Below, in pieces: positions 5,377 to 51,759 of a stretch of 64,000 nt of DNA; position 1 is the stretch's first letter; each line of letters starts with the position of its first letter. A program made the translations under genes and the position numbers. The notes under the pieces are model-generated. The model was given only the letters and a program-made list of their open reading frames with translations, was not told the DNA's origin and made no database searches. This DNA comes from a virus. Where the stretch lies: the IMG/VR virus record IMGVR_UViG_3300035670_000087, one strand, 5' to 3'.

Positions 5377-5378
5377 GA

Positions 5379-6050
5379 TTATAATAAAAATCTACGTCTT
5401 ATTGCATTAAAATTTTGTAATACTTGTCCTTTACTTAAGGCTATATCATATGCTACTACGCAAGCCATATCCCCTTCCCAATACCCTGCGTAGCCATTTC
5501 CTATTGTTATGCTAGTAGTTGTATACGGAAGGGCTCCATATGGGTTTGTCATAGTAGCAGTCTGTACTCCATTTTTATACCAAACAACAGTGTTTATATC
5601 TCTTGTTGCGCACATAACATTCCAAACTCCTGTAGAAGTTGTTCCACTATTTAGAGCTGTGTAAGGAGTACTATTTCCTCCATTATCTCCATAAAAATAG
5701 TTTATATTAACTCCTTGTTCATGAGTCCATGTTCCATACCCTCCATATGCTTGGTTCCAAGGGTTTTTTCTTCCAGAAGTGTAAGTATGTCTCATAACTA
5801 TCATAACAGTCTGTCCTTCTGAAAAATTTAAACTTCCACTATTGCTAGTTATTGTTCCATAATTACTGGTTCCATTAAAAGTAAAATAATTACCTGAATG
5901 CCCAGGTGCGTTTGGTAGAGAACAGTGATTACCAAATCCACTAATATCATACCAAACACTTCCTGATCCAGAATAGGATCTCTTATCCGCTGCATCTAAA
6001 ATAAGAGATATTCCTTCGAGAACTATTCTAGGTCCGTAATTTTGTGCCAT
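5379..6050 (-). CDS. Single-domain LamG/concanavalin-A-like protein
   Basis: [54 protein letters not shown]. Confidence 0.85.
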
Positions 6051-6052
6051 AA

Positions 6053-12000: not shown

Positions 12001-13717
12001 ATGACCCGCTAGACCCAGACGTACCTGCTGTACCTGTTGATCCACTACTTCCTGCTGAACCTGAAGAGCCTGATGTTCCTGTTGTTCCTGACGATCCAGT
12101 AGATCCTGAACTTCCTGATGTACCTGTAGACCCCGAACTTCCTGTTGATCCGCTACTTCCACTAGTACCAGACGTGCCTGATGTGCCAGTAGATCCTGAA
12201 GATCCTGATGTGCCACTTGAACCAGATGTTCCTGATGTGCCTGTAGAACCGCTAGATCCTGTAGATCCAGAAGATCCTGTTGAACCAGATGTACCGGATG
12301 ATCCTGAGGTACCAGTTGATCCTGAAGAACCAGAGGTACCAGTAGAGCCTGATGAGCCTGTAGATCCACTACTTCCACTAGAACCAGAAGAGCCTGATGT
12401 TCCGGTTGATCCGCTTGTACCTGATGTACCGCCAGTACCAGATGTACCTGTGGATCCACTAGACCCTGAATTTCCACTAGAACCGGATGTGCCTGAGGAG
12501 CCAGAACTACCTGAAGTACCTGATGAGCCGGATGTACCAGAAGATCCGGATGTGCCTGAACTGCCGGAAGACCCGGAAGTACCGCTTGTACCTGTAGAAC
12601 CTGAACTGCCAGAAGTTCCTGATGAGCCTGTAGAACCTGAGCTACCGCTAGATCCTGAAGTTCCAGTAGAACCGCTTGATCCAGAGCTTCCAGACGTGCC
12701 AGTAGATCCGCTAGATCCGGTGGTGCCTGATAAGCCTGAGGAACCGCTAGAGCCAGAACTTCCGGAGGTGCCGCTAGAACCTGAGGTACCTGAAGTACCA
12801 CTAGAGCCGTCAGCTCCACTAGTTCTATAATAAAATTGTCCAGTTACAGGGTCTACTACTACAAAAGTTGTTGAACCAGAATTTAAAGATAAATCTTTTA
12901 CGCTTAAAGACCCTGTTATAAGTACACTTCCAGTAAATTGATGTGTATCAGTTAAACTATCCCCAAATATATTACTACCGCTGCTGTATACTACTGAAGA
13001 TGTTACATACTCTACTACTAAAGTAGTTGCATATATGTTTCCTGGGGTTACTATATCTCCGCTAACATTTAAAGATCCAGTAACAGTTAAAGTATTATTG
13101 TTATATACTAAATTAGCAGAAGCTGTTGCTGCGTTTACAGAACCATCGGATAAAATTATTCTTCCTGGTCCGGGATCATGTATAGTATCAAATCCTGTTC
13201 CAGAAGAACCAGCTGTACCACTTGTACCTGTTGTTCCAGATGTGCCTGAAGTACCGCTTGTACCTGTTGTTCCAGATGTGCCTGAAGTACCGCTTGTACC
13301 TGTTGTTCCAGAAGAACCAGCTGTACCGCTTGTACCTGTTGTTCCACTTGTTCCACTAGACCCGTTAGTGCCAGAAGATCCTACGCCTCCAGATAAAGTA
13401 TATTGAAACTGCCCAGATACAGGATCTACTACTACAAAATAAGATGCACTAGAAGTTACCAGTAAGTGTTTATTATATATGGACCCAGAAATGTCTAAGG
13501 ACCCAGTAAAAGTTTGAATACCTATAAAAATATTGGATCCAGTAGTTGCTAATGATGCAGATTTTGAAGAAAATATAGGGTCGTTTTCTGGAAAAGAACC
13601 TGAGAAAGAACCTGTAAAAGAGCCTGAGAAAGATCCCGCAGTTACGGTATTCGATACTGTTAGATTTTTAAAATTTGCATCAGAACCATCTCTGGCTATC
13701 TGGATCCATGTTGCCAT
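6053..13717 (-). CDS. Giant (2554 aa) tail fibre-like protein: about 1500 aa of Gly-X-Y (X,Y mostly Ser/Thr) repeats interrupted by globular domains
   Basis: Near-strict Gly every third residue in five blocks; three copies of a ~125-aa domain; C-terminal IKSFVIDHP...LQYGVLEGPEHSVYVRG motif recalled from fibre C-termini. Confidence 0.85.
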   Translation of the reverse strand: MATWIQIARDGSDANFKNLTVSNTVTAGSFSGSFTGSFSGSFPENDPIFSSKSASLATTGSNIFIGIQTFTGSLDISGSIYNKHLLVTSSASYFVVVDPVSGQFQYTLSGGVGSSGTNGSSGTSGTTGTSGTAGSSGTTGTSGTSGTSGTTGTSGTSGTSGTTGTSGTAGSSGTGFDTIHDPGPGRIILSDGSVNAATASANLVYNNNTLTVTGSLNVSGDIVTPGNIYATTLVVEYVTSSVVYSSGSNIFGDSLTDTHQFTGSVLITGSLSVKDLSLNSGSTTFVVVDPVTGQFYYRTSGADGSSGTSGTSGSSGTSGSSGSSGSSGLSGTTGSSGSTGTSGSSGSSGSTGTSGSSGSSGSTGSSGTSGSSGSTGTSGTSGSSGSSGTSGSSGTSGSSGTSGSSGSSGTSGSSGNSGSSGSTGTSGTGGTSGTSGSTGTSGSSGSSGSSGSTGSSGSTGTSGSSGSTGTSGSSGTSGSTGSSGSTGSSGSTGTSGTSGSSGTSGSSGSTGTSGTSGTSGSSGSTGSSGSTGTSGSSGSTGSSGTTGTSGSSGSAGSSGSTGTAGTSGSSGSSGSTGSSGTTGTSGSSGTSGTTGSSGSSGTSGSSGSTGTSGSSGSSGSRGSSGTSGTAGSSGSSGSSGSSGSTGTSGTGGSSGTTGTSGSTGTSGSSGSSGTSGSSGSSGSTGTSGSSGSTGTSGSTGTSGSSGSSGSSGSTGTSGSSGSSGTAGLSGDRYLTSSTGSFTLGNSGSLYVGTGLAYSITQTVVIAYDLNNYQEAQVSSYDPITGLLTFITPSTTVGSGTYSSWSINLAGASGGDGSSGSSGTSGSSGSSGTSGQNGSSGTSGSSGSTGTSGSSGSTGTSGSSGSSGTSGTRGSSGTSGTSGTSGTTGSSGSSGSTGTSGTSGTSGSTGSSGSSGSTGSSGTSGTSGSTGTSGSSGTSGSTGTSGSSGSTGTSGSSGTSGTSGSSGTSGTAGSSGTSGSTGTSGSSGISGTAGSSGSSGSSGSTGTSGSSGSSGTSGTGGSSGSSGSSGSSGTRGSSGTSGSSGSSGSTGSSGTSGSSGTSGSSGSTGTSGSSGSTGTSGSSGSTGSSGSSGSSGSRGSSGSSGSTGTSGSSGTSGSSGSSGTGGSTGTSGSSGSSGTGFNTINSPAQGRVILSDGTTNAATASINLLYTNNSFNVTGALNVSGNISTPGNIFANTLVVQYITSSVIYSSGSNIFGDSVTDNHLFTGSVKITGSLSLRNIPISSSANLFLVVDQDGNVFYRTSGADGTSGSSGSTGTSGSSGTSGSSGSSGSSGSSGSSGSSGSSGSSGSSGSTGTSGSSGSTGTSGSSGSSGTSGSSGSSGSTGTSGSTGTSGSTGTSGSSGTSGSSGSSGTRGSSGSSGSTGTSGTSGSTGTSGSSGSSGTSGSSGSTGTSGTSGSTGSSGSSGSTGTSGSTGTSGSSGSSGSSGSSGSTGTSGSSGSSGTSGSSGSTGTSGSSGSTGTSGSSGSSGTRGSSGSSGSTGTSGSSGSSGSSGSSGSTGTSGSTGTSGSTGTSGSAGTSGSSGSSGSTGTSGSTGTSGTSGSSGSSGSSGSTGTSGSSGSTGTSGSSGTAGTGGSSGTSGSSGSSGTSGTRGSSGTSGTSGSSGSTGTSGSSGSTGTSGSSGSTGTSGSSGSTGSSGSSGTSGTSGSSGSSGTGFNTIHNPGIGRVILADNTVNAATASINLIYANNSFNVTGTLNVSGNIVTPGSIFANTLVVQYVTSSVIYSSGSNIFGDSLTDSQEFTGSVKISGSVAIKDLALNAGLTRFVVVDPTTGQFYYRTSGADGTAGSSGTSGSSGTSGSSGSTGSSGSSGSTGTSGSTGTSGSSGSSGSTGTSGSSGSTGSSGSSGSTGTSGSTGTSGSTGTSGSSGSTGTSGSSGSTGTSGSSGSTGTSGSSGSTGTSGSSGSSGTRGSSGSSGSTGTSGSSGSTGTSGSSGSTGTSGSSGSTGTSGSSGTSGSSGSRGSSGSTGTSGSSGSSGSRGSSGSSGSTGTSGSSGSTGSSGSSGSRGSSGSSGSTGTSGSSGSSGSSGSSGSTGTSGTSGSTGSSGSSGSSGQNGSLTWTPVMTNVTQGPSPDVFTKTGGTNNAWDSQVYSQQGYVRGVFVTSKISSTTGYAMIGLNSDPTTNASYISIDYAFYFNNATVSIYESGGSIGSFGSYTVDSVAYVTYDGYNVRYYLDGTLLRTVARSIGSPLHLDSSIYNTNLAFTNVGFGPMGESGTSGTSGTGFNTVSNPADNRVLTSDGTTNAAVAESNLTFDGTILNITRTTGNGSLYGTGDLVLETDSTFYIGAYTARPLYINSANGASGTVYVSSAGLLGVGTTSPASKLTISGGSLGSTSGDRVLLQNFTTTTTNVDNLEITNIRIGNGSDWYTSGHRIQQKVDSTWMGYIQFNGGNIGGLSIGAGTTTSSPTSVTQVMSINVGTVDITGVLTATIKSFVIDHPTKPGMKLQYGVLEGPEHSVYVRGRLKGDNTIILPDHWVNLVDENTITVNLTPIGKHQNLYVKSSDYEKVIVGSEDYIDCYYTIFAERKDVDKLITEY
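9786..9866. repeat. Perfect 9-bp microsatellite (gaagaacct)x9 encoding (GSS)n
   Basis: Counted directly: nine identical units from 9786 to 9866. Confidence 0.95.
13215..13345. repeat. 36-bp near-perfect tandem repeats (about 3.6 units) in the first Gly-X-Y block
   Basis: Units begin gtacc(a/g)cttgtacctgttgttccaga at 13215, 13251, 13287 and 13323. Confidence 0.85.
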
Positions 13718-39953: not shown

Positions 39954-40253
39954 TTATATATCCATTCTGATTAAAAAATTGGTATCTGTGTCTGGGGAAA
40001 TTGGTATCGGTTGTGCAAATTTAGCTACCATCAATAAGTCATTAGAATCATTGTAAAATCCTACCATGGTAGCATATGGAGTAAAATCAGACCCGCTGGC
40101 AAACCCAACCATAGTCTCCTTACTACATGCTGTTAATAAAGAAGGATTATAACTATATCCCATTTCGTGATCCTTAATAGTACACTTTATACTCCTCTCT
40201 ATTATTAAGTGGTTATTAGAAAATTGTAGATTAAAGTCCTCGTATCCTGGCAT
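39954..40253 (-). CDS. Stand-alone C-terminal domain of a baseplate/fibre-attachment protein
   Basis: YSYNPS...PYATMVGFYNDSNDLLMVAKFAQPIP matches the C-terminus of the 51777-52847 protein (YTTNPS...FPTTIGLYNDSNELLAVAKLSKPLP). Confidence 0.7.
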   Translation of the reverse strand: MPGYEDFNLQFSNNHLIIERSIKCTIKDHEMGYSYNPSLLTACSKETMVGFASGSDFTPYATMVGFYNDSNDLLMVAKFAQPIPISPDTDTNFLIRMDI

Positions 40254-40263
40254 ATATTATATT

Positions 40264-41022
40264 TTATGGACAAATTCCTGCATCTGAGCATGCATATGTC
40301 GTTTGTATAAAGTCCCCGTTAGTTACTGCAACACTATTTACAGTTTTTATAGTTGCTTTTACACTTCCATTTGAGAATCCAGAAGTTAAGTTAGTCGTCC
40401 TGTAAACCAAAATAATGTCCTGATAACCTTCTGCTGGAATAGTTATGTTAGTACTTGTTGCATCAGTTAATACACTTGGAACATTAGCAGCTAGTACTGT
40501 AGCAGATACCTGTGCTAAGAATGTAGACTCAGGAGGTGTAGTTTGAGGTAATATTGTAGTACTTAATCTACCGCTAATACAAGCAGAAGGTCCGCTTATA
40601 CTTAGCATATAGTGCTGTGCGTACAATTCTACTCCTATTACAGCTCCTACAGGACCTCTTAAACGAGTCCATACTTTACCCCCTTGTCCACATATATTTA
40701 AGTATCCTGTGTAGCTAGAATCAAATAGTACAGGCATTGTAGTTGGTGTTGAAGTTGGAGTAGGTGTGGATGTTACTGCAGGAGTTGGTGTTGGGGTCAA
40801 TGTAGGGTTAACTAGATTATATGAAATACTGTCAGTGCAGACTCCAGTAGATGTTACAGTTATTTGAGTAGAATTGACATCTGTATTTACATTAAACCCT
40901 GCTAATAACTGATCTCTGGTTACTCCTATTGCTATAGTACCTAAAACATTATCTGATATTGTGAAAGGCCCTGCGGAAGTACCTATACTAGAAAGACTTA
41001 CTGTGGCTACTCTTGTTGGCAT
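40264..41022 (-). CDS. Putative virion appendage protein with Pro/Thr linker (paralog C)
   Basis: N-terminal AGPFTI...LLAGF..C domain, PTLTPTPTPAVTSTPTPT linker, beta-rich C-terminus. Confidence 0.65.
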   Translation of the reverse strand: MPTRVATVSLSSIGTSAGPFTISDNVLGTIAIGVTRDQLLAGFNVNTDVNSTQITVTSTGVCTDSISYNLVNPTLTPTPTPAVTSTPTPTSTPTTMPVLFDSSYTGYLNICGQGGKVWTRLRGPVGAVIGVELYAQHYMLSISGPSACISGRLSTTILPQTTPPESTFLAQVSATVLAANVPSVLTDATSTNITIPAEGYQDIILVYRTTNLTSGFSNGSVKATIKTVNSVAVTNGDFIQTTYACSDAGICP

Positions 41023-41023
41023 A

Positions 41024-41773
41024 CTATCCCTCCCATATTTGAATACTTACGAAATCGGTTGATATTATATTAACAGATAGATAAAAATCTATAACATCAT
41101 TCATATTAAAGTTGTAAGATTGGTAAACAGTTCCATTAACTTGTATCATAACGTATCCAGCATCCATTGCTGTATTCGTTGGAGATATTTTCCTAACCCT
41201 ATACACAACTTCGTTTGATACTCCCTCTGTTATATAAGAATCGTTTTTACCATAGGCTGGTATAGTGGAACTTGCCACGTTTATAGTATCTAAGCTAGCT
41301 CCTGCGGTGCTATTGAATATCTCAAACACATTTGAAGGGGATATATCATTCAATACTACCTGGGCTCTATTCCTAACTGTAGCTCCAGTAGGTGTAGGCG
41401 TAGGCGTTGATGTAGCTGTTGGAGTTGCTGTAACAGTTGGAGTAGGTGTAGGAGTGGCATTTTCTGCTACGGTAACAGACATTCCAAACAATGTACAATT
41501 TAATATTGTCGGGAATGGGGTTGGTGTAGGAGTAGATGTAGGCACAGGAGTAGGAGTATACTGTATGACTTGGTAAACTTCAGAATTTCCGCAATACGGA
41601 TCTGAATTTACTACTATAATTGTAGCAGGACTGCCAGCTATGGTTACTGAATACCCTGCTAGTAAAGACGCTCTATCTACGCCACTATCTACCAGTGTTC
41701 CTTCAGAAATACTGTTATAGTAAATGTCAAACGGGCCTGCTGCGTCTCCTGATATAGTAACTATAAAATCCAT
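41024..41773 (-). CDS. Putative virion appendage protein with Pro/Thr linkers (paralog B)
   Basis: N-terminal AGPFDI...LLAGY..C domain and two PT-rich linkers. Confidence 0.65.
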   Translation of the reverse strand: MDFIVTISGDAAGPFDIYYNSISEGTLVDSGVDRASLLAGYSVTIAGSPATIIVVNSDPYCGNSEVYQVIQYTPTPVPTSTPTPTPFPTILNCTLFGMSVTVAENATPTPTPTVTATPTATSTPTPTPTGATVRNRAQVVLNDISPSNVFEIFNSTAGASLDTINVASSTIPAYGKNDSYITEGVSNEVVYRVRKISPTNTAMDAGYVMIQVNGTVYQSYNFNMNDVIDFYLSVNIISTDFVSIQIWEG

Positions 41774-41774
41774 A

Positions 41775-42860
41775 TTATATAAATATAGTTTTGTTTACTT
41801 TTGACAAAGCGGATCCTATTACTTGATGCATATCGTAGTATTTGTAATCAGCAAGTCTACCTCCAAAAATATATTTAGTTTCTATATTCATTAAACTTTT
41901 ATACTTATTATACTTAATATTATTTTCAGTATCATTTATAGGATAATAAGGGTCTCCATTATTTTCAGGAAATTCCATAGATATTACAGTGTTACTTTGT
42001 TTGCCATACTCAAAATGCTTGTGTTCTGTTATCCTAGTAAACGGGACTTCCTCGTCCGTATAATTCATCCCAGCAACTCCTTGATAATCACTCATTTGAA
42101 GATTGTATGTCTCAAATCTCAAACTTCTGTAATCTAGTTTTCCAAACTGATTATTATAAAATTCATCTATAGGTCCTGTATAGATTATTTTTTTAGCTAT
42201 GGATTCAAAATAGTCCCTGTCTTTAAAATAATCATAGTTTAGTCTAACATTTATACCTTTTAACAGTTTTTGGAATATTTGAGTATAACCTCCTATGGGT
42301 ATCCCAGAGTAAGTATCGTCATAGTAATTATCATCGAAAGATAACCTTATTGGAAGCCTTTTTATTATACTAGTAGGTAAGTTTTTTGGATCCTTATTCC
42401 ATTGTTTTTTTGTATATCCTTTTATAAAAATATTATAAATCTCAGGACCTACTTGAGAAATAGCCCAATCTTCTAAATTCTTTGGGTCATTTATATTTAC
42501 TTTAACATCCTCTAGCTTCCTAAAAGCTTCATCCGGAGTCGTCACTCCATAGATTTGATACAACGTCATTAAATTTATAGGAAAAGAATATATACTTCCT
42601 TTATAATTTACTTTCGGCCTATACTTAAAATCATTAAACTCTGCGTACTTTCTTACGTAGTCCCATATATTTTTATCAGAGGTATGAAATATGTGAGGAC
42701 CGTATTTATGTACATTTATACCTTCCGTATTTTCAGTATAACAGTTACCTCCTATATGAGATCTTTTGTCTATTACTAAACACTTAAACCCTCTATCGGT
42801 TAATTCTCTAGCACATACAGCTCCAAATAGACCTGATCCTACAATTAAATAATCAAACAT
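41775..42860 (-). CDS. glf: UDP-galactopyranose mutase
   Basis: IVGSGLFGA FAD motif, HIGGNCY, HKYGPHIFHT, GYTKKQW, TRITEHKHF, PYYP, GGRLADYKYYDMHQVI. Confidence 0.97.
   Translation of the reverse strand: MFDYLIVGSGLFGAVCARELTDRGFKCLVIDKRSHIGGNCYTENTEGINVHKYGPHIFHTSDKNIWDYVRKYAEFNDFKYRPKVNYKGSIYSFPINLMTLYQIYGVTTPDEAFRKLEDVKVNINDPKNLEDWAISQVGPEIYNIFIKGYTKKQWNKDPKNLPTSIIKRLPIRLSFDDNYYDDTYSGIPIGGYTQIFQKLLKGINVRLNYDYFKDRDYFESIAKKIIYTGPIDEFYNNQFGKLDYRSLRFETYNLQMSDYQGVAGMNYTDEEVPFTRITEHKHFEYGKQSNTVISMEFPENNGDPYYPINDTENNIKYNKYKSLMNIETKYIFGGRLADYKYYDMHQVIGSALSKVNKTIFI
41778..41785 (-). promoter_or_regulatory. TATTTATA putative late-promoter motif overlapping the last codons of glf
   Basis: 4 nt upstream of ATG 41773. 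Confidence 0.55.
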
Positions 42861-43469
42861 TTATTTCTTTATATATAGAGCATCTCCCCATTTATGAACT
42901 GTCATAAAAGTTTCAACTCTTGTTAAATTATATTTTGACAAATACTCATCTATTTCACTTACAAGTGCACAATCTTGATACAAATAATCTTCATTTACTT
43001 CGCAATACACGTAGTCAAATTTACTTAAATAATCCTTGAATCCTTTAAAAACCTCTAATTCATATCCTTGTACATCTACATTTAAAAAGTTATACATGTC
43101 GATATTAATATTATTATCTAAAATTATATCTGACATTGTTTTTATTTGTATCTCTACTTCTTTTATAAAATTAACATGTGGATGTTCTTTTTCATGAGTT
43201 CCTAATTTTAAAAAAGAAGAAGATTCTCCATTATTTGCTATTTTAAATGTCTCTATTTTATTCTCGTTACCTACCCCAGATATGATAACAATATCATTAG
43301 GACATCTTGATTTGAGACCCTCCTCATACTCTGGATTGGCCTCCACCCAAACAATAGGATTTATGCTATTACTTTCATACCAACCCTTTTCTTGTCCGTG
43401 GTGGGCTCCTATATGTATAGCTCCTTTTAGTGGGGTTATAAAGTGCTTCTTGAGATCTGTTATTAACAT
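42861..43469 (-). CDS. FkbM family SAM-dependent methyltransferase
   Basis: IHIGAHHGQE, VWVEAN, FLNVDVQGYELEVFKG, WGDALY. Confidence 0.92.
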   Translation of the reverse strand: MLITDLKKHFITPLKGAIHIGAHHGQEKGWYESNSINPIVWVEANPEYEEGLKSRCPNDIVIISGVGNENKIETFKIANNGESSSFLKLGTHEKEHPHVNFIKEVEIQIKTMSDIILDNNINIDMYNFLNVDVQGYELEVFKGFKDYLSKFDYVYCEVNEDYLYQDCALVSEIDEYLSKYNLTRVETFMTVHKWGDALYIKK

Positions 43470-43472
43470 GTA

Positions 43473-44246
43473 TTATATTTTTAAAAAATTAGAACAATAT
43501 AAATCATTCACATTCCAATCGGAATATCTTGATCCAAACCAAGTTATTGGAGCTATTATTTTTTTATTTTCATTGGTGCTTAGCCAAGATCCCCACCAAC
43601 TAAAGGTACTATTTGCTATTATGTGATGGTCGCATTTTGATATTAGACACATGTCATGAGCTAAGTCCTGTTTGTTGTATATTATGTTGGGGATTTTAAA
43701 ATTATCTTTGCACCATACTATGTCATCTGAGGTACACACAAAAACTACATCTTCCCCATCTAACATTTTAATAGCCTTATTATAGTACTCTATAGTACAT
43801 AAAGGATGGGCATCCGGATATAGCAAATAATCTCCTCTCCTCACATGCAAAGACACTTTTACTTTATTTTCATAGGGTTTTAAAAAATTATCTACCTTAT
43901 TAGATATTTCTTTTTTGAAAGTATACTCTTTTTTAACTGCGCTAGGACAATGTTCAAAATACTTCTCAGTCTGGAAATACCCTCTAAAATTAGTACTTGT
44001 ATCTATATTAAAGACTCCTTGATCAAAATGAAAGTGTTTTTCCTGATATAAGTTTAGTGTGTAAGTCTCTTTAATTTCACATTCTTTTATATCAAAAAAA
44101 TCAAATAGATAACTTCTTTTTTTTACTTCTGGGTGTATTACTATATCTGCCTCTATTTTATACTTTACTCCTAATAGTAATGCATATTGGAACATTTGAT
44201 TTCCTAATTGTCCATATTTAGCAAGAAAATCATAAGTAATTACCAT
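43473..44246 (-). CDS. GT11 alpha-1,2-fucosyltransferase-like glycosyltransferase
   Basis: GQLGNQMFQYA, GYFQTEKYF, SLHVRRGDY, SDDIVWCK, IIANSTFSWWG. Confidence 0.93.
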   Translation of the reverse strand: MVITYDFLAKYGQLGNQMFQYALLLGVKYKIEADIVIHPEVKKRSYLFDFFDIKECEIKETYTLNLYQEKHFHFDQGVFNIDTSTNFRGYFQTEKYFEHCPSAVKKEYTFKKEISNKVDNFLKPYENKVKVSLHVRRGDYLLYPDAHPLCTIEYYNKAIKMLDGEDVVFVCTSDDIVWCKDNFKIPNIIYNKQDLAHDMCLISKCDHHIIANSTFSWWGSWLSTNENKKIIAPITWFGSRYSDWNVNDLYCSNFLKI

Positions 44247-44947
44247 TCTGCTGGTTTTTGAACTACATTATATATATACTTATCAGCTATAGATAAGGTA
44301 TAGTCCACTTCTGAAGATTCTATATCAGAATAGTTTTTTCTCTGAGTTACTAAATTTTTAAGAGACATGTATATTTTATTTTCTTTCCTCTGACCTAAAT
44401 TACCATAATACCCATCATTACAAGGATAACTTCTAAAAAAATTTGAATTAGTCAATATTTTGTCATAAAATTTATTATTAATAGCATAAGCGTGATTAGT
44501 TGTTGTTCTTATAACTCTGCCTAAATTATCAGTTTCTTTATAGTATTCTAATGGGTTGCACCCTAAATAAAACATATCCCAATCAATATTAGACAAATCA
44601 TTAACGCAGTTTGCTAAATCTAATACTATATTATCATCAAAAGAAGCATCGTCTTCAAATATCAATACATTTCTATAGTTCATCATTTTACTTCTTAATA
44701 AAACTGTAAGATGAGACATAGTACATGACTTTATTCTTGGGGCATACTCTGGTCTTGGGGTATCATAAAAATCACAACCTCTTTTTACTAAATCATCATT
44801 TTGCTCTTTAGTAAGACTTATTGCAGAAAACCTTTCTGCTTCTATATCATATCTTTTAAATTGATCTTCCATGTACTCTTTTCTATCTACACGGTGATCT
44901 AAATTTATATAATATATTTTGTCAAAAAAATGAAATGGATTTTTCAT
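44240..44947 (-). CDS. GT25 family glycosyltransferase (beta-galactosyl/glucosyltransferase-like)
   Basis: YYINLDHRVDR, ERFSAI, SCTMSH, LIFEDDA, WDMFYLG, HAYAIN. Confidence 0.88.
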   Translation of the reverse strand: MKNPFHFFDKIYYINLDHRVDRKEYMEDQFKRYDIEAERFSAISLTKEQNDDLVKRGCDFYDTPRPEYAPRIKSCTMSHLTVLLRSKMMNYRNVLIFEDDASFDDNIVLDLANCVNDLSNIDWDMFYLGCNPLEYYKETDNLGRVIRTTTNHAYAINNKFYDKILTNSNFFRSYPCNDGYYGNLGQRKENKIYMSLKNLVTQRKNYSDIESSEVDYTLSIADKYIYNVVQKPAEW

Positions 44948-46035
44948 ATAAATTCATTTAGTAAATTAATCCATAAGTTTCCAACTACTTCTATATTAAA
45001 ATTGTTTTTTATAAGATCTTTAGATCTATTTCTTATATCATTTTTTACTTCAGGATTGTTTTCTAAGTAGATTAACTTTTTGACATACTCACTATGATCA
45101 TTCATGTATTGTGCGTCACAAGTCACTTTCTCATTTAACATTTTTTCCATATCTGTTTCAACAGGAAAATCTACATATACACATCCTGGGCTAAAATACT
45201 CAGGTATGGCTCCTAAAGGATAAGTCAGTACTATAACTCCAGCAGCTATTGCTTCAGCTACTGAACAAGAAAATGTATCCTTGTAAACACAACCATTTGG
45301 ATGGTATAAAGGAAATATAAAATAATCAGTCTCTAATAATTTATAAAATAACTCTTTTTTATCTGTGCCGTTTTGAGGGTTTACATAATCAAATGTATAC
45401 ATTTTTTCCCATCCAAGTTCTAATACTGTTCTATTTGCTACATCCCCTCCTCTTCCATATTGAGCATGGAATATAGAACTTTTTTCTTTTCTAACTATTT
45501 TTTCTTCTTTCTCAATCTTTTCTATTAACTCGGTCATTATTGGATTCGGAATAATTACGTCTACAGTATTTTCTATTTTCTGTTTACCTAATTCTACATT
45601 CCAATCATTTTGGCTTCTAGACCATTTTGATATATTAACAAACCCCATTTTTAATTTATGAGTATTGCAAAAATCGATCATCTCGTTTATACAATAAACC
45701 CATGCCATGTGGTACCAGTATAATAGCCCTTTGGTTACTTTAAAAGGTATTTTATCATACTTATCAAACCAAAGAGCCGTTATTAAAATATCAACATCCC
45801 CTTGCCCTATAAAACTTTTATAATCAAAATCATCGTAACTAACCCCCCTGCATTTTTGTCTGTCAGTTTTATCTAAAACTATAGTTACGTCATGACCTTT
45901 TGTAGCAAGATACTCTGCTATCATAATAACAGACTGATCTGTTCCGGAAGCAGGCGCTTTACCTTCTCTAATAGTATCTCCATTTAATATTTTAGGCCTA
46001 CCTTCAGTACCTACTAATATAAAAACAATTTTCAT
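44944..46035 (-). CDS. GT-B fold glycosyltransferase, GT4-like
   Basis: DYFIFP...DTFSCSVAEAIAAGVIVLTYPLGAIPE (E-x7-E type motif with D variant). Confidence 0.85.
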   Translation of the reverse strand: MKIVFILVGTEGRPKILNGDTIREGKAPASGTDQSVIMIAEYLATKGHDVTIVLDKTDRQKCRGVSYDDFDYKSFIGQGDVDILITALWFDKYDKIPFKVTKGLLYWYHMAWVYCINEMIDFCNTHKLKMGFVNISKWSRSQNDWNVELGKQKIENTVDVIIPNPIMTELIEKIEKEEKIVRKEKSSIFHAQYGRGGDVANRTVLELGWEKMYTFDYVNPQNGTDKKELFYKLLETDYFIFPLYHPNGCVYKDTFSCSVAEAIAAGVIVLTYPLGAIPEYFSPGCVYVDFPVETDMEKMLNEKVTCDAQYMNDHSEYVKKLIYLENNPEVKNDIRNRSKDLIKNNFNIEVVGNLWINLLNEFI

Positions 46036-47285
46036 TATAATACTTTTTCGTATCTATCGCTCCATTGTTTTTCCTCATCAAATAAATACATTACTATTTT
46101 TTGAGGTTTATCAGAAGTTTGAATATTGACTGTAGTCTTGTTTTTTTCCAATTTTACATATTCAGGACTTTCCTCAATTGTAAAATCTTTTCTATACAAT
46201 TCAACTCCACTTCTAGTATGTACAGCAAAAGTTAAAAATTTAGGATTTTGAAAGTCATACTGTTTAAAAAATTCAACATCCCATTCGCAATCAAAAGTAT
46301 ACTTAGTTAATACAAACTGATCTTCCCAAGGTTCTGGATTTGGTGGTTCTTTTACTTTTAGGGTGTACTCTTGTATTCTACAATTCTTAAAATCAAATCC
46401 TCCATAAACTTCGTAATCATGTAAAGATCTTACGTCTCCTAGTCCATACATTCCCATATCTATACCATGATCCTCCTGTCCAAAAAGTTGCCTTGTTTTG
46501 TTCCTAGCAAAAATATCTCTTTCCCCAGAAGTTTTTTTAGTTTGACTTTCTAATCCATGATCGTCCCAATGCTTTACACGATAGTTTCTCGTGTACTCGT
46601 GCCACATTACCATTCGATATGGGCTGAAAAAATCATATCCTTTTGTGAAAGCTCTGACGCTTAGTGTAGTTTCTTCTGTGTACCCTCCAAAATATATGTC
46701 TGGGTCATATGGTACCTCCTCTATGAACTTTCCTGATGTAAAATAGAAATGGCCGCTTATAGTTCGGGCTCTTATAACTTTATCCCTCTCTTTATAATCT
46801 TGTATGTACCATGGCATACTCATTAAGAGTTTATCAGCAGAAAATTCATACTGAGACATTAAACATGGTGTTTTATCGTATTTACACGAACAATCTTTAG
46901 GATTAAACGGAGTGCAATAAGTAGTTATAATTGGTTTTTCGGATACTTGAAGAGCTTGATTATAGTCCTCCAGTACGATCTCATCCCAATCCTGAACAAA
47001 TCTATGGTGGCTATCTATTTGTAAAGTGTATTTTTCACCATCATATAATTTGTTTGTTATGTTTCTTGCCCAACCTAAACCTTGACTTTCAGAATAATGA
47101 TGTTTACTTATTCTGACATTTTCCATGTGATCTAATACACTAATATCTTCTGTTTCGTCATATTGCCAACAAATGCCAAAAGTTAAATTATTAGCATTTT
47201 TTGCCTTGGTTATCATATCATCAATAGTAGGAATAAGTTCAGGATCTCTATAACTAGCTATTTGCACAAATATCTTATTATTCAT
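46035..47285 (-). CDS. GT60-like (Skp1/mucin-type) peptide N-acetylglucosaminyltransferase
   Basis: IFVQIASYRD, QGLGWAR, LQIDSHHRFVQDWD, ISGHFYF, VPYDP..YF.GYTEE..LSVRAFTKGYD, WHEY. Confidence 0.85.
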   Translation of the reverse strand: MNNKIFVQIASYRDPELIPTIDDMITKAKNANNLTFGICWQYDETEDISVLDHMENVRISKHHYSESQGLGWARNITNKLYDGEKYTLQIDSHHRFVQDWDEIVLEDYNQALQVSEKPIITTYCTPFNPKDCSCKYDKTPCLMSQYEFSADKLLMSMPWYIQDYKERDKVIRARTISGHFYFTSGKFIEEVPYDPDIYFGGYTEETTLSVRAFTKGYDFFSPYRMVMWHEYTRNYRVKHWDDHGLESQTKKTSGERDIFARNKTRQLFGQEDHGIDMGMYGLGDVRSLHDYEVYGGFDFKNCRIQEYTLKVKEPPNPEPWEDQFVLTKYTFDCEWDVEFFKQYDFQNPKFLTFAVHTRSGVELYRKDFTIEESPEYVKLEKNKTTVNIQTSDKPQKIVMYLFDEEKQWSDRYEKVL

Positions 47286-47302
47286 AAACTAAATTTACAC
47301 AA

Positions 47303-47310
47303 CAAATATA
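47303..47310 (-). promoter_or_regulatory. Bacteroidota -7 promoter element in front of the glycosylation operon
   Basis: TATATTTG (TAnnTTTG) in the 35-nt gap, 17 nt upstream of the ATG; -33 TTTG not well matched. Confidence 0.55.
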
Positions 47311-47320
47311 GTAAAATTAT

Positions 47321-48880
47321 CTATAAAGGAACGCAAGATCCGCCAGAACATACTAAAATATCTAAAACTTGTCCACTACTATCTACTTCCATAATTCTGA
47401 AAGGACCCGTATTAGTATCTGTGCTAGTACTTGAGTATGCATAAAATCCTGAAGATGCTATGTCAACAAAGTCTCCTATAGATAATGAGTTGTAATCGTT
47501 ATCTGATCCTATTTGGGTATTTATCAGATAATTAGTGGCTCCGCAGAAAGTACTACAAACTCCCTGTGCTCCGGATATATAAATTGTTTGAGGGAACGCT
47601 GGGGTCGGCGTAGGAGTTGCTGTAGCAGTAGGGGTTGGGGTTGCTGTAGTACAAGAGGAGATCTGCGTTATTTCTCCAAATCCATCTATTTCTTGGTATC
47701 TATAGCAAGTTGTTCCATCACTATAATAGAAGTTGTAGAATACCTCATTTGTAAGAGAACTATCAAAGAATAATCTTGATCCTATAACCAATGGACTGTC
47801 TGCGCTATATATAGAAACAGGCTCCATGTATTCGCAAGCTACTGCACAAGTAGAAGCATAATCAAAGCTATAGGAAAAAGAGTTTACGGTAGGTGTAGGT
47901 GTTGGAGTTGCTGTTGCTGGTATAGGAGTTGGGCTAGGGGTAGCTGTAGCTGGTATAGGAGTTGGTGTAGGAGTTGCTGTTGCTGGTATAGGAGTTGGTG
48001 TAGGAGTTGGTGTAGGTGTTGATGTAGGTACAGGTGTAGCTGTAGCAGGTACAGGTGTGGCTGTAGGTGTTGATGTAGGTACAGGTGTAGCTGTAGCAGG
48101 TACAGGTGTTGGAGTTGCTGTTGCTGGTAACGGTGTTTCGGTAGGTGTTGATGTAGGTATCGGTGTTGCTGTAGCAGGTACAGGTGTTGGGCTAGGAGTA
48201 GCCGTAGGTACAGGTGTAGCTGTAGCTGGTATCGGGGTTGGAGTAGGGGTTGCTGTAGGTGCTTCAGTAGGTACTGGTGTAGCTGTAGCTGGCACAGGGG
48301 TTGGAGTTGGTGTAGCTGTAGGTACTGGTGTAGCTGTAGCAGGTTCAGGAGTTGGTGTAGGAGTTTCAGTAGGTGTAGGTGTTGCTGTAGCAGGTATAGG
48401 AGTTTCAGTAGGTGTAGGTGTAGGTGTAAATGTTGGGGCTCCTATAGGGGTAGCTGTAGGAGTAGCCGTTGCAGGTACAGGTTCTGTAGGAGTTGGGCTA
48501 GGGTCAGGAGTTGGTGTAGCAGGTTCAGGAGTTGGTGTAGGAGTTTCAGTAGGTGTAGCTGTTGGAGTAGCTGTAGCAGGTATAGGAGTTTCAGTAGGTG
48601 TTGGTGTAGAAGTAGGAGTAGAAGTAGGAGTAGCAGTAGGAGTAGGGGTAGCAGTAGGACAGTTTATTGGTATATCAACAAAACTTCCTGTACATAATCC
48701 TAAAGGTCTGACTTCTATACTAGTAGCAAAATCATCTATAGTAACGGTAACTCCTGCTAATAGCTCAATTCCTGTTGCTGTACTAGGAACTGCACTTCCT
48801 ATATTTGGAGACATAGTAAAAGTAGGTCCTGATGAGGAGCTTCCAGTTGAAGTCAATACTACTATTACTTGTTTCGCCAT
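47321..48880 (-). CDS. Mucin-like virion appendage protein, about 255-aa Pro/Thr/Ala tract (paralog A)
   Basis: N-terminal SGPTF...LLAGV..C domain, long [10 protein letters not shown] repeats, two small Cys-containing C-terminal domains. Confidence 0.7.
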
Positions 48881-48891
48881 TTTCTATTTTA

Positions 48892-48899
48892 TATAAATA
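48892..48899 (-). promoter_or_regulatory. TATTTATA putative late-promoter motif
   Basis: Intergenic upstream of the mucin-like gene. Confidence 0.6.
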
Positions 48900-48912
48900 C
48901 TACACAACTTTA

Positions 48913-51759
48913 TTATACCAATCCTATACTTCTTACATTGTAGTAACTATCGGCAACGGTTCTTACGTCATCGGCTGGATAATAGCTAGCTCCTCCATTA
49001 TAGGTCTGGAGTTCCCAATAAGCTTCCCACCCTTCAGTTACACCAGGTTCTACACCAGTAGAAGTTGCTATAGCTCTGTATATTCTAGATTTATGAGTTA
49101 CATACCAAGTATTGTCATAAGGAGCCAATATATCCCAGTACATAAACCTATGATGATCGAAGCCAGGGCCTATATAATAGTTCTCAAACTGTACATCTAT
49201 AACTGATGTTTGTACGTTGTTATAGTTAATTGTCCAGTCAGTTCCTCCTACAAATGTAGTTACATCTCCAGTGTTGTCAAAAATATTGTTTCTAAACAAT
49301 AATGGAGATGTTGGACTATTCTCCATTCCATTTTCTACAACATTTGTATTTGAATTTGGACTTAAGAAGAATCCAAATACGTTATTATTAATGTCTGTAG
49401 TAACAGGTGGATATGGTACATTGTAGCTTGGTCCTCTTAAGAATAAGCCCCTAGCCCCAGAGAACTGGTCTGTTCCTCTATTAGCAGGATCGTACATTCC
49501 TATGTATAATACAGCATTATTCTCACAAAGAGTTGTTCCTCCAGTAGGAGGATAATCAATAACATCCTCAAAGAAGTACTGTATGCCTGCGTACCCCATT
49601 GTTCCTACAAGCAGATTATTTCTGAAAGAAGTCCCTCCATCAGTTATTGCTAAGTTAACTCCTAGATCTTGACCTTCTTCATTATCTAAGCCTACACTTA
49701 CAATAGCATTATTATATATGTCAGATCCGGAAACCATTCTTTTAACCTGTACTCCATCATACCCACATCTAATAAATCTGTTATTATATATTTCTATGCC
49801 TTTATAAACTTCAAAAGTATCTACACCAGTAAAGTATCCCCAATAAAGACCTTCTCCGGATATATCATGGAAATAACAATCGTGTATTCTTATGTTTTCT
49901 ACAACTGCGTACCTGTTATCTATGCTTTGGTTGGTGTACCCACCGTTTCCGGATTCTATGTACTCTACTTCGTAATTTGTTGCATGGTATACAGTTGTTC
50001 CAATAGTAGCAGCGTCTATTTGAAGCAAGTTTCCTGTAGAATTTTGCCACCTATTGTTAATAAAGATACCATATTTACCTTGGCTCCATGCGTAACCAGT
50101 GTCATGTCCTTGGTAGCTTATGTCTCCTGTCTTATTAGCTGCATCGTACTTACCTGTTAACTTAAAGTAAGACATGCCCTCTATATGCAAAGTTCTTGTT
50201 TCTACTTGGCCGCAGAAGTTTGTTATTACAATAGGATCTTCTGCTGTACCAGCTGATGAGTTGGTTATTCTTATAAAATCATACCTAATTCCACCTCTAA
50301 TCAATATCTTATTCCCAGGACCTAAAGTAAAGCTAGTATCAGTTAAATTAATTGCAGGAAGTCCTGCACTAGTTTGAGTTCCTCCTAATACTATAAGATC
50401 TCCTACCGTTACATTAGGTATAGTGGCCGCATCTTCAGAAGTTGCGTATCTAAAGTTAGCACTGCTAGGAGAAGGTATAGAAGGACATCCTGCGCTAAGT
50501 GTCGGTGTAGGAGTAGGAGTTCCAGTTACAGTAGGAGTAGCTGATATTGTTGGAGTTGGTGTTGGTGTAGGGGTGGCTGTTGTTAAGCCTACGCAATAAG
50601 CTATACCAGTCAATGTACCACAGAAAAGAGTTGGTGTTGGTGTAGGGGTCGTTGTGGCTGTAGGTGTAGGTGTTGATGTAGGTGTTGCTGTAGGCAAAGG
50701 AGTTGCAGTTGCCGGAGGCATTACAAATGTAGGAGTTGCTGTAGGAGTAGAAGTAGGTGCTGCGGTAGGAGTGGCTGTGAAAGTAGGCGCAGGTGTTATA
50801 CTTGGTCCAGGTGTGGAAGTTGGTACAGGTGTTGGAGTAGGTGCCGGTGTTGTTACATCTTGTACAATTAGAACAAAACCACAAAGAGGCCTTTGTACAT
50901 TTACTGTTATTTTAGCAAAATTTGAAGGAAATGTACAAGAACTTGTTGTAGTTGTAGCTAAGAATTGATAAGAAGTTTCGTATGTTCCAGGGGTTGCTTG
51001 GGTAAATGATAAAGTACCGTTACCAACATTAGTAAAAAATGAAGAATCTCCCCCCGAAAGGACCAGAGATTCTGTAGCCAGTGTTAACCCTCTTAAATCA
51101 TCATTAGCTGTTGGATTTATGCTATACGGAACATCAGCTGGGCTTATAGTAAAAGTATCGTCTTTTGCATAAGGAGCTAAAATAAATATAGTTTGGTAGT
51201 CTTCATGAGATATAACTGCTACACCTTGTCCATAAAAAATATTACCAACAAGAGTATATGGATCTGTAGCTAGATCAAATATATTACCTTTTCCGTCATC
51301 TTGTAGATTATAAAGAGAAGTAGATATGTTAAAAGACAACTCTTTAATAGATTGTCCGTACACTTCTTTGGACACAGATAATACTTTTATTTCAGCTCCA
51401 GAAGCTGTTGGTAAAGTTTTAATCATGTAGCCTACAGGAATGTAGTCAAAATAAGATCCAGATGCTCTATAAATAGAAGCATCTTCGTAGTAATTTGATT
51501 CTAAATTAGATGTATTATCTAATAAAGACCCTGAAAAGTATTGATAATATAGATGGTTTATGGAATCGTATACAAACCTGTCGTATTCATTGTAAGTCTT
51601 TTCATCGTTACTATAGTCAAAAGTAGTATCGGTTTTTACTCCATTTAAAACTCTTATCCCATAAGAACTTAGATCACAAGAACTAATCGTCCACTCCTTA
51701 TTTGCAATATAAGGAATACTTACTACATCTGACTTATATAGACGTTTGTATGATGACAT
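48913..51759 (-). CDS. Baseplate-anchored spike: baseplate-type N-terminus, Ig-like domain, PT linker, parallel beta-helix, C-terminal CBM5/12-like module
   Basis: VGNIFYGQG; APYAKDD; RIHDCYFHDISGEGLY, IYNNRFIRCGYDGVQ, IYNNAI beta-helix rungs; WYVTHKSRIYRA...EPG...W..YW. Confidence 0.7.
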   Translation of the reverse strand: MSSYKRLYKSDVVSIPYIANKEWTISSCDLSSYGIRVLNGVKTDTTFDYSNDEKTYNEYDRFVYDSINHLYYQYFSGSLLDNTSNLESNYYEDASIYRASGSYFDYIPVGYMIKTLPTASGAEIKVLSVSKEVYGQSIKELSFNISTSLYNLQDDGKGNIFDLATDPYTLVGNIFYGQGVAVISHEDYQTIFILAPYAKDDTFTISPADVPYSINPTANDDLRGLTLATESLVLSGGDSSFFTNVGNGTLSFTQATPGTYETSYQFLATTTTSSCTFPSNFAKITVNVQRPLCGFVLIVQDVTTPAPTPTPVPTSTPGPSITPAPTFTATPTAAPTSTPTATPTFVMPPATATPLPTATPTSTPTPTATTTPTPTPTLFCGTLTGIAYCVGLTTATPTPTPTPTISATPTVTGTPTPTPTLSAGCPSIPSPSSANFRYATSEDAATIPNVTVGDLIVLGGTQTSAGLPAINLTDTSFTLGPGNKILIRGGIRYDFIRITNSSAGTAEDPIVITNFCGQVETRTLHIEGMSYFKLTGKYDAANKTGDISYQGHDTGYAWSQGKYGIFINNRWQNSTGNLLQIDAATIGTTVYHATNYEVEYIESGNGGYTNQSIDNRYAVVENIRIHDCYFHDISGEGLYWGYFTGVDTFEVYKGIEIYNNRFIRCGYDGVQVKRMVSGSDIYNNAIVSVGLDNEEGQDLGVNLAITDGGTSFRNNLLVGTMGYAGIQYFFEDVIDYPPTGGTTLCENNAVLYIGMYDPANRGTDQFSGARGLFLRGPSYNVPYPPVTTDINNNVFGFFLSPNSNTNVVENGMENSPTSPLLFRNNIFDNTGDVTTFVGGTDWTINYNNVQTSVIDVQFENYYIGPGFDHHRFMYWDILAPYDNTWYVTHKSRIYRAIATSTGVEPGVTEGWEAYWELQTYNGGASYYPADDVRTVADSYYNVRSIGLV

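Follow-up and report, generated by a model that had tools for sequence, protein, structure and literature searches.

The virus record IMGVR_UViG_3300035670_000087, of which a stretch of 64,000 nucleotides (nt) was analysed (the window), carries at positions 46035-47285 on the minus strand a gene for a glycosyltransferase (GT) of the GT60 family that heads a series of six sugar-handling genes. We propose, with a probability of roughly 0.55, that the product is a cytoplasmic polypeptide O-N-acetylhexosamine (HexNAc) transferase that starts a galactofuranose (Galf)-containing glycan on threonines of the phage's own Pro/Thr (PT)-rich tail appendages, a reading that rests on sequence comparison and predicted structure. 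The source phage is large and uncultured, its DNA having been seen in subsurface, lagoon and freshwater metagenomes, and the window represents a virion structural module with genes for the major head protein, the portal, the large terminase and the baseplate wedge. The enzyme gene and its parts, with residues numbered in amino acids (aa), are the following.

46035-47285, minus strand: GT60-like (PF11397) glycosyltransferase gene, assigned by profile, motifs and fold
47007-47015, minus strand: DxH metal-binding motif D91-S92-H93, invariant across 33 homologues
46338-47285, minus strand: GT-A catalytic domain, aa 1-316 of the AlphaFold2 model, aligned to the catalytic domains of Dictyostelium Gnt1 and of polypeptide N-acetylgalactosamine (GalNAc) transferases (ppGalNAc-Ts)
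46038-46334, minus strand: extra C-terminal beta-sandwich (FN3/Ig-like), aa 318-416, outside the Gnt1 alignment

What kind of enzyme does this gene encode? The translation runs uninterrupted over 416 aa and contains all four motifs from which an earlier note on this DNA had recognised a GT60-like transferase, namely IFVQIASYRD (aa 5-14), QIDSHHRF (aa 89-96), ISGHF (aa 175-179) and EETTLSVR (aa 204-211). These motifs are real and far beyond chance. They are enclosed by a match to PF11397, "Glycosyltransferase (GlcNAc)", the Pfam counterpart of CAZy GT60, which scores 208 bits (E 3.7e-61) against a cut-off of 21. PF11397 is the only match in the Pfam scan of the protein, with no match to GT2 or GT27, and the profile comparison by which the note had wanted its assignment checked thus leads to GT60 and not to a non-peptide GT2-type enzyme. 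In addition, PHROG 24687 is matched end to end (E 4.9e-88). NCBIfam contains no model matching this protein or the GT-B, GT25 and GT11 proteins encoded behind it. In an alignment of 33 full-length homologues with 32-90% identity the residues D14, D91, S92, H93, R95, W100, D101, E205, R211 and H229 are invariant; a metal motif of the DxH type is characteristic of GT27 and GT60. Taking profile, invariant motifs and fold together, the gene product is a GT-A glycosyltransferase of the PF11397/GT60 family. Its maximal hydropathy over 19 residues is 0.35, i.e., there is no membrane segment, and therefore cytoplasmic action is expected, as for Gnt1.

The AlphaFold2 model calculated from the 33-row alignment has a mean predicted local distance difference test score (pLDDT) of 93.7 and consists of a GT-A domain and a separate C-terminal beta-sandwich. 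The top reviewed structural neighbour is Dictyostelium Gnt1 (Q8T1C6; E 3e-26, TM score 0.65, 25% identity over query residues 3-316), with an E value 15 orders of magnitude better than that of rank 2, and all other reviewed neighbours are ppGalNAc-Ts (E about 1e-11). Likewise, ranks 1-29 of the fold search against the PDB are all ppGalNAc-Ts (E about 1e-11 to 1e-9, 10-18% identity), several of which were solved with mucin peptides. PDB sequence searches with the single protein and with the 33-row profile found no solved relative, and the likeness to GT27 is one of fold only. Clusters of the AlphaFold Database (AFDB) named "Glycosyltransferase family 60" or "GlcNAc" also match the model (E 1e-31 to 1e-24). 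In two further AFDB clusters named "procollagen-lysine 5-dioxygenase" (A0A1E7FG09, 811 aa; D7FNT7, 691 aa) a GT60-like domain aligns to the model, and these proteins may be dioxygenase/GT60 fusions.

The C-terminal 99 residues, modelled alone, reach a pLDDT of 93.5. Their best matches are FN3 domains with a Z score of 6.8, which indicates a generic fold and lies below the level of kinship, and a Foldseek search of the PDB with this domain gave nothing at E<=1e-3. Identity with a ricin-type lectin was considered and rejected, the fold being an FN3/Ig-like sandwich with no lectin assignment. The domain occurs in full-length phage and bacterial homologues. Speculatively, placed where animal GT27 enzymes carry their lectin domain, it could help to hold acceptor proteins. 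A predicted complex of the GT60 protein with residues 1-125 of one PT-tract protein of the window (252 aa) scored 0.00 in a calculation without controls, which counts neither way.

Relatives of the enzyme are numerous: 5277 were found at E<=1e-5, involving thousands of metagenomic sequences, with 4204 clusters at 50% identity, and the best 120 of the 5277 are 73-90% identical, about 417 aa long and in all cases matched by PF11397. Megablast of the genomic island that holds the gene against 50,697 phage records gave no match, and tblastn against phage records found only four jumbo phages with 32-35% identity. In a tree of phage and bacterial rows only, the gene of the window falls into a 46-row phage clade (support 100) that is nested among bacterial and other phage rows, and the full-length bacterial homologues are 33-47% identical to the phage enzyme as compared to 25% for Gnt1.

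Behind the GT60 gene the enzyme genes follow one another in the order GT-B, GT25, GT11, FkbM and UDP-galactopyranose mutase (UGM), and from 47285 down to 39954 genes overlap or are at most 10 nt apart.

44944-46035, minus strand: GT-B (Glycos_transf_1/GT4-like) glycosyltransferase, its start codon overlapping the GT60 stop
44240-44947, minus strand: GT25-family glycosyltransferase, a variable member (PF01755, 58 bits)
43473-44246, minus strand: GT11-family (alpha-1,2-fucosyltransferase family) gene, a variable member (PF01531, 97 bits)
42861-43469, minus strand: FkbM-family methyltransferase (PF05050, 61 bits; TIGR01444)
41775-42860, minus strand: UDP-galactopyranose mutase (Glf/UGM), the conserved operon end (PF03275, 252 bits; TIGR00031)

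PF00534 matches the GT-B protein below threshold, and an Atlas feature score of 0.97 connects it to Glycos_transf_1 clusters. For UGM the profile match is of equivalog grade (TIGR00031, 369 bits, cut-off 303.75), and the GT11 and GT25 genes are present along with it. The designation of the GT60 gene as first of the operon holds for the enzyme genes but not for the transcript, as a Thr-Pro gene (47321-48880) lies 35 nt upstream on the same strand; given this short gap without a terminator-like site, the transcription unit probably starts further upstream. Scans for sigma-70 promoters and terminators gave nothing above shuffled sequences, and the complete pattern of a Bacteroidota promoter shows no enrichment and does not occur upstream of the GT60 gene. 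The sequence TATTTATA is found in 22 copies against 14.5 expected, a number reached by 3 of 100 shuffles, with one copy just before the 519-aa PT gene; it is not used as support.

How constant is this arrangement? The comparison covered 64 loci, 62 from viral contigs and two from assemblies. In 53 of them the GT60 gene comes first and is directly followed by a GT-B homologue, and UGM is present in 48, 44 of which have the GT-B gene as well. GT60 and UGM are the conserved members, with identities of up to 83-98%, whereas the transferases between them often reach no more than 22-40% or are missing. Within the window's own subclade GT60 and UGM are 71-98% identical; for the GT25 and GT11 genes identity falls to 22-38% in most relatives, where they are not missing or exchanged for others. 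A complete 257-kb genome (G003) has a minimal operon of PT protein, GT60, GT-B, FkbM and UGM beside DNA polymerase B, and a divergent FkbM is found in the minimal operon of locus L018. Since the minimal operon contains two transferases and the conserved UGM, one of the transferases must use UDP-Galf, which argues for a short glycan with Galf built onto the residue that GT60 attaches. Such a pattern, in which initiation and sugar supply are kept and the steps in between are exchanged, would be expected of a diversifying surface glycan.

Which proteins could be the acceptors? The operon is flanked by four PT-tract genes in the window, and two further candidates lie at a distance.

47321-48880, minus strand: 519-aa protein, candidate acceptor; Thr/Pro/Ala tract of 271 residues (aa 66-336; 94 Thr, 88 Pro)
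48913-51759, minus strand: 948-aa baseplate-attached protein, candidate acceptor; PT linker of 131 residues (aa 299-429), C-terminal part beta-helix-like
41024-41773, minus strand: 249-aa PT-tract protein, candidate acceptor, directly downstream of UGM
40264-41022, minus strand: 252-aa PT-tract protein, paralogue of the 249-aa protein, candidate acceptor
39954-40253, minus strand: 99-aa open reading frame (ORF) at the far edge of the island, which in island-free relatives directly follows a short baseplate gene
3217-5376, minus strand: 719-aa protein, distant candidate acceptor; PT tract of 171 residues (aa 495-665), small tip containing Cys
6053-13717, minus strand: 2554-aa Gly-Ser/Thr triplet-repeat fibre, alternative acceptor

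The genes of the 519-aa and 948-aa proteins are separated by 32 nt. The 249-aa and 252-aa paralogues share an N-terminal domain with an invariant G18-P19-F20, and also in their tracts there are invariant Thr and Pro positions.

Several observations connect these tracts with the GT60 gene. Of 61 loci, 20 have a PT-tract ORF immediately upstream of GT60 and a further 8 have one as the second gene upstream, while such ORFs make up 6.5% of all other genes in the compared loci. The globular parts of the GT60-adjacent PT proteins are unrelated between lineages, and the common plan is an N-terminal domain, a PT tract and a small Cys-containing tip; it is the tract that recurs and not a protein family. 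The pairing is found in differing contexts, in the baseplate module as well as beside DNA polymerase B, and the genes of a second GT60 clade, with 35-38% identity, likewise come after those of PT-rich baseplate proteins (L173, L227). Moreover, in Sphingomonas (L160:2483-13201, a contig of a metagenome-assembled genome; also L140 and L157) two tandem PF11397 genes are located directly behind the gene of a PT-tract protein of 1171 aa that includes an Rv2525c-like glycoside-hydrolase domain, and the locus continues with an extracellular contractile injection system (eCIS) core-domain gene and a contractile-injection-system tape-measure gene. Thus, a bacterial locus for a phage-tail-like particle has the same pairing of enzyme and PT protein.

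Phages without GT60 whose baseplate genes are about 70% identical lack both the island and any PT ORF (29/45 loci with enough flank), and their layout is baseplate gene, short gene, 99-aa ORF and GIY-YIG gene. The N-terminal part of the 948-aa protein is shared with this short gene. What is missing in these relatives, as compared between 39954-51759 of the window and L174-L245, is the block consisting of the PT linker and beta-helix part of the 948-aa gene, the 519-aa gene, the six enzyme genes and the two PT genes. By its sequence, the block 39954-51759 appears to behave as an inserted island. At the level of contigs, 5 of 6 that carry GT60 have 3-7 PT ORFs, whereas any PT ORF is found in 1 of 5 GT60-free contigs, and no PT ORF occurs in the two GT60-free genomes that are complete or nearly so (173 and 154 kb; Mann-Whitney p = 0.014 for the PT ORF load of the contigs, with small n and uncorrected for kinship). 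L188, with PT proteins apparently lacking a GT60 partner, has a PF11397 gene elsewhere on the contig. In the 335-kb genome G002 the operon lies away from the structural genes and seven PT ORFs are found elsewhere in the genome. The interpretation given in the earlier note is borne out in all parts open to a computational check, and its suggestion that Thr or Ser is the likelier acceptor gains independent support from comparison, because proteins with Pro/Thr tracts travel with the GT60 gene.

The most likely course would be that late in infection the GT60 enzyme takes UDP-HexNAc, most probably UDP-N-acetylglucosamine (UDP-GlcNAc), with Mn2+ bound by D91-x-H93 and H229, and transfers the first sugar in alpha linkage to hydroxyls of Thr (or Ser) within the extended Pro/Thr tracts of the phage's own tail and baseplate appendages, either ahead of their assembly or in its course. 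The translationally coupled downstream enzymes would then extend this sugar, first the constant GT-B partner and subsequently the lineage-variable GT25 and GT11, while FkbM would add O-methyl groups and UGM would supply UDP-galactofuranose. The product would be a core of the Galf-HexNAc-O-Thr type, in this phage presumably elaborated with galactose (Gal), fucose (Fuc) and methyl groups.

A number of points weigh against such a pathway. Donor sugar, acceptor residue and glycan are all deduced indirectly, the donor not being readable from the sequence. Some 20 loci from the clade to which the window belongs lack a PT gene within 10 kb, G002 being the sole fully read genome among them, and G012 has a GT60 gene and no PT ORF in the 134 kb read. 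The adjacency could in part result from a shared hot spot for accessory genes near the tail-fibre genes, and the locus counts are not independent because the loci are related. In L002 the GT60 gene is present alone, without partner enzymes. Furthermore, homologues occur in other settings. In Acidobacteriaceae (L102:3231-7269, chromosome of Tunturiibacter psychrotolerans) a full-length PF11397 homologue divergently adjoins genes for a GT9 heptosyltransferase and a HldE-like kinase/adenylyltransferase, which suggests a role of this branch in the core of lipopolysaccharide (LPS), judged from one locus of the clade, and PT neighbours are found in 1 of 33 rows of the acidobacterial clade. In phage XacN1, the one of the four jumbo-phage matches whose neighbourhood was read, and in L060 a homologue stands beside a carbamoyltransferase. 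Consequently, membership in the family is by itself no proof of a peptide acceptor.

These contexts also bear on whether the operon remodels a glycan of the host envelope, be it LPS core, O-antigen, capsule or a surface glycan of the Bacteroidota type. Such remodelling could serve, for instance, to prevent superinfection or to change a receptor, the PT proteins then being mere neighbours. GT25, GT11, GT-B and UGM are classic families of LPS and O-antigen clusters, PHROG 24687 is filed under "moron, auxiliary metabolic gene and host takeover", and phage GT clusters are usually read in the literature as modifying the host surface (or DNA) (PMC12801897); the acidobacterial locus and the loci without PT neighbour point the same way. 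However, neither a polyprenyl-phosphate initiating transferase nor a flippase, polymerase, ligase or ABC transporter shows up in profile scans of the operon. Its lead enzyme lacks a membrane segment and resembles polypeptide transferases in fold, the island is placed inside late structural genes, and PT tracts co-occur with GT60 at the genome level and across unrelated PT proteins. Remodelling of the host envelope thus appears improbable.

Glycans could also be put onto hydroxymethyl-pyrimidines of the phage DNA as protection against restriction. Large T4-like phages do glycosylate their DNA, phage enzymes of the GT-A and GT-B types are known to assemble di- and trisaccharides on 5-hydroxymethylcytosine (bioRxiv 10.1101/2023.12.21.572611), and the XacN1 homologue is located near replication genes. 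The described DNA-modifying GT-A enzymes, however, are of the base-J glucosyltransferase/TarP-like type with a DDD-type site (bioRxiv 10.1101/2023.12.21.572611), whereas the enzyme of the window has DxH and Gnt1 and ppGalNAc-Ts as fold neighbours. Since, in addition, the operon lies among tail genes and no methyltransferase/dioxygenase or hydroxymethylase gene adjoins it, DNA hypermodification seems highly implausible.

Closer to the proposed glycosylation of PT-tract threonines is the idea that the operon does act on phage proteins but elsewhere, on the Gly-Ser/Thr fibre, on other virion proteins, or on hydroxyproline (Hyp) of the PT tracts generated by an unrecognised or a host hydroxylase; taken together, these variants are unlikely. 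The 2554-aa fibre offers many hydroxyls (622 Gly, 813 Ser, 411 Thr and 30 Pro, in triplet blocks split by repeated globular modules), and several similar fibres are encoded by the GT60-bearing 335-kb G002, but none is present in G003 or G009, which carry GT60 and do have PT ORFs. For hydroxyproline it can be argued that Gnt1, the nearest characterised relative, uses this residue, that the PT tracts are as rich in Pro as in Thr, and that some eukaryotic GT60 domains appear fused to dioxygenase-named proteins.

A hydroxylase partner is conceivable in distant homologues with 30-32% identity. Just upstream of these lies a gene of 161-162 aa (L062:7747-8235, L063:5949-6434, L064:9055-9540) with an oxygenase-like match to PF09859, which at 18.6 bits stays below the cut-off of 26.2, and a Thr/Ala-rich protein of 764-884 aa with a weak Hint-domain match precedes it; these loci may represent a hydroxylase-plus-GT60 variant. 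The window itself, as the note had stated, contains no prolyl-hydroxylase-type domain, nor do the 137-kb relative G001 of the same lineage and the complete 257-kb G003, as far as the 2-oxoglutarate-Fe(II) oxygenase family PF13640 is concerned. G002 has three PF13640-type oxygenases far from the operon, and tblastn with these proteins against the window gave no match. The missing hydroxylase weakly favours Thr or Ser over hydroxyproline, weakly because only one oxygenase family was searched and because a host enzyme could act instead.

How does the proposed polypeptide transferase compare to known systems? With Gnt1, the [Skp1-protein]-hydroxyproline N-acetylglucosaminyltransferase of Dictyostelium discoideum, it shares PF11397, the DxH motif, a soluble cytoplasmic nature and the absence of a lectin domain. 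The Skp1 pathway continues with enzymes of Gal and alpha-1,2-Fuc transfer, to which the GT25 and GT11 genes here may offer a parallel; both belong to other families than PgtA. In contrast to the phage enzyme, Gnt1 modifies a single hydroxyproline of a single protein after the action of a dedicated prolyl hydroxylase, whereas the likely acceptors in the phage are hundreds of threonines in repeat tracts and no hydroxylase was found with the family searched. The phage enzyme also differs by its extra FN3-like domain and is closer to bacterial homologues.

The polypeptide alpha-GlcNAc-transferases that start mucin-type O-glycans in Trypanosoma cruzi and Dictyostelium belong to GT60 as well (PMC8724618). 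The probable type of acceptor is the same, Thr-rich repeats containing Pro, but the protist enzymes are type II membrane proteins of the Golgi that act in the secretory pathway, whereas the phage enzyme is soluble and would act in the bacterial cytoplasm. Some T. cruzi strains extend the mucin glycan with Galf, and UGM is a conserved member of the operon here; the T. cruzi enzyme is likened by family and description. All things considered, the phage enzyme would work most like these protist transferases, combined with the soluble cytoplasmic nature of Gnt1.

The animal and apicomplexan ppGalNAc-Ts of GT27 share with the phage enzyme the GT-A fold, the DxH motif and, if the proposed role holds, the initiation of dense O-glycans on tracts rich in Ser, Thr and Pro; a motif of the GG-E-x-x-x-S-x-R type is presumably also common to both. 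They differ in that the phage enzyme is only 10-18% identical, has no GT2/GT27 Pfam match and lacks a ricin-type lectin domain, and its donor is probably UDP-GlcNAc rather than UDP-GalNAc.

Phage-encoded glycosylation of virions as such is already known. According to PMC12619734 (citing Freeman et al. 2023, Cell Host Microbe), mycobacteriophages are reported to modify their own structural proteins by phage-encoded glycosyltransferases, with glycans at the C-termini of capsid and tail-tube subunits. The window's phage would resemble them in that its own transferases act on its own structural proteins in the host cytoplasm, the difference being a lead enzyme from a mucin-type family and, as candidate acceptors, appendage proteins with PT repeats. 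In chloroviruses and mimiviruses, virion proteins or fibres are decorated by virus-encoded cytoplasmic transferases together with a methyltransferase and a nucleotide-sugar enzyme. A comparable set of transferases, methyltransferase and nucleotide-sugar enzyme is carried here by a tailed bacteriophage, whereas those are giant viruses of eukaryotes with other enzyme families and linkages.

New in the present case would be the mucin-type initiator and PT-repeat appendages as its probable target, and the enzyme is set apart by its added FN3-like domain, its bacteriophage host and a compact operon with UGM. Our literature search found no paper on a phage GT60 or PF11397 protein, and a preprint on the virome of a freshwater sponge merely lists GT60 among viral carbohydrate-active enzymes. 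Experimental proof of virion glycosylation in tailed phages has so far come from mycobacteriophages. The system proposed here would be of another, mucin-like kind. More broadly, we tentatively suggest, as a generalisation with somewhat less than even odds, that tailed phages and phage-tail-like injection systems carry a widespread undescribed cytoplasmic pathway of mucin-type O-glycosylation with a core of GT60 with FN3-like domain, GT-B and UGM and with swappable extension enzymes, that this pathway coats the Pro/Thr stalks of tail appendages with Galf glycans differing between lineages, and that this branch is the ancestral cytoplasmic form of the eukaryotic mucin-initiating enzymes. If so, the appendages with which many large aquatic phages recognise their hosts would be densely covered with O-glycans that vary between lineages, with a bearing on host range, protection against proteases and adhesion to mucus or particles. 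It would also offer a tractable model of mucin-type initiation in the bacterial cytoplasm, a possible tool for producing O-glycosylated PT linkers in E. coli, and data on the long-standing idea that eukaryotic GT60 and GT27 descended from prokaryotic cytoplasmic transferases.

Some observations on further relatives may be added. The lone GT60 gene of L002, a 293-kb contig of the European Nucleotide Archive (5133-7045, 10001-11254), is 75% identical to that of the window. At a distance of a few kb there are genes of the IS605 OrfB/TnpB type and for a resolvase, and the GT60 gene may have moved on its own. In a phage clade with 40% identity (L053:8296-9957; L054, L057, L058) the gene of a 553-aa HtrL_YibB (PF09612) protein is found directly upstream; UGM is encoded by the other strand at a distance of about 4 kb, and PT-tract genes follow 6-9 kb downstream. 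A number of very long proteins of 1088-2461 aa (P0125-P0127, P0133, P0137 and others) contain 3-4 PF11397 domains in tandem with 34-36% identity to the window enzyme. Finally, one viral contig (L061:254-3400) encodes a 1048-aa fusion of PF23452 (hydroxyproline O-arabinosyltransferase family), the O-FucT domain PF10250 and PF11397, and this fusion gene adjoins a second PF11397 gene.

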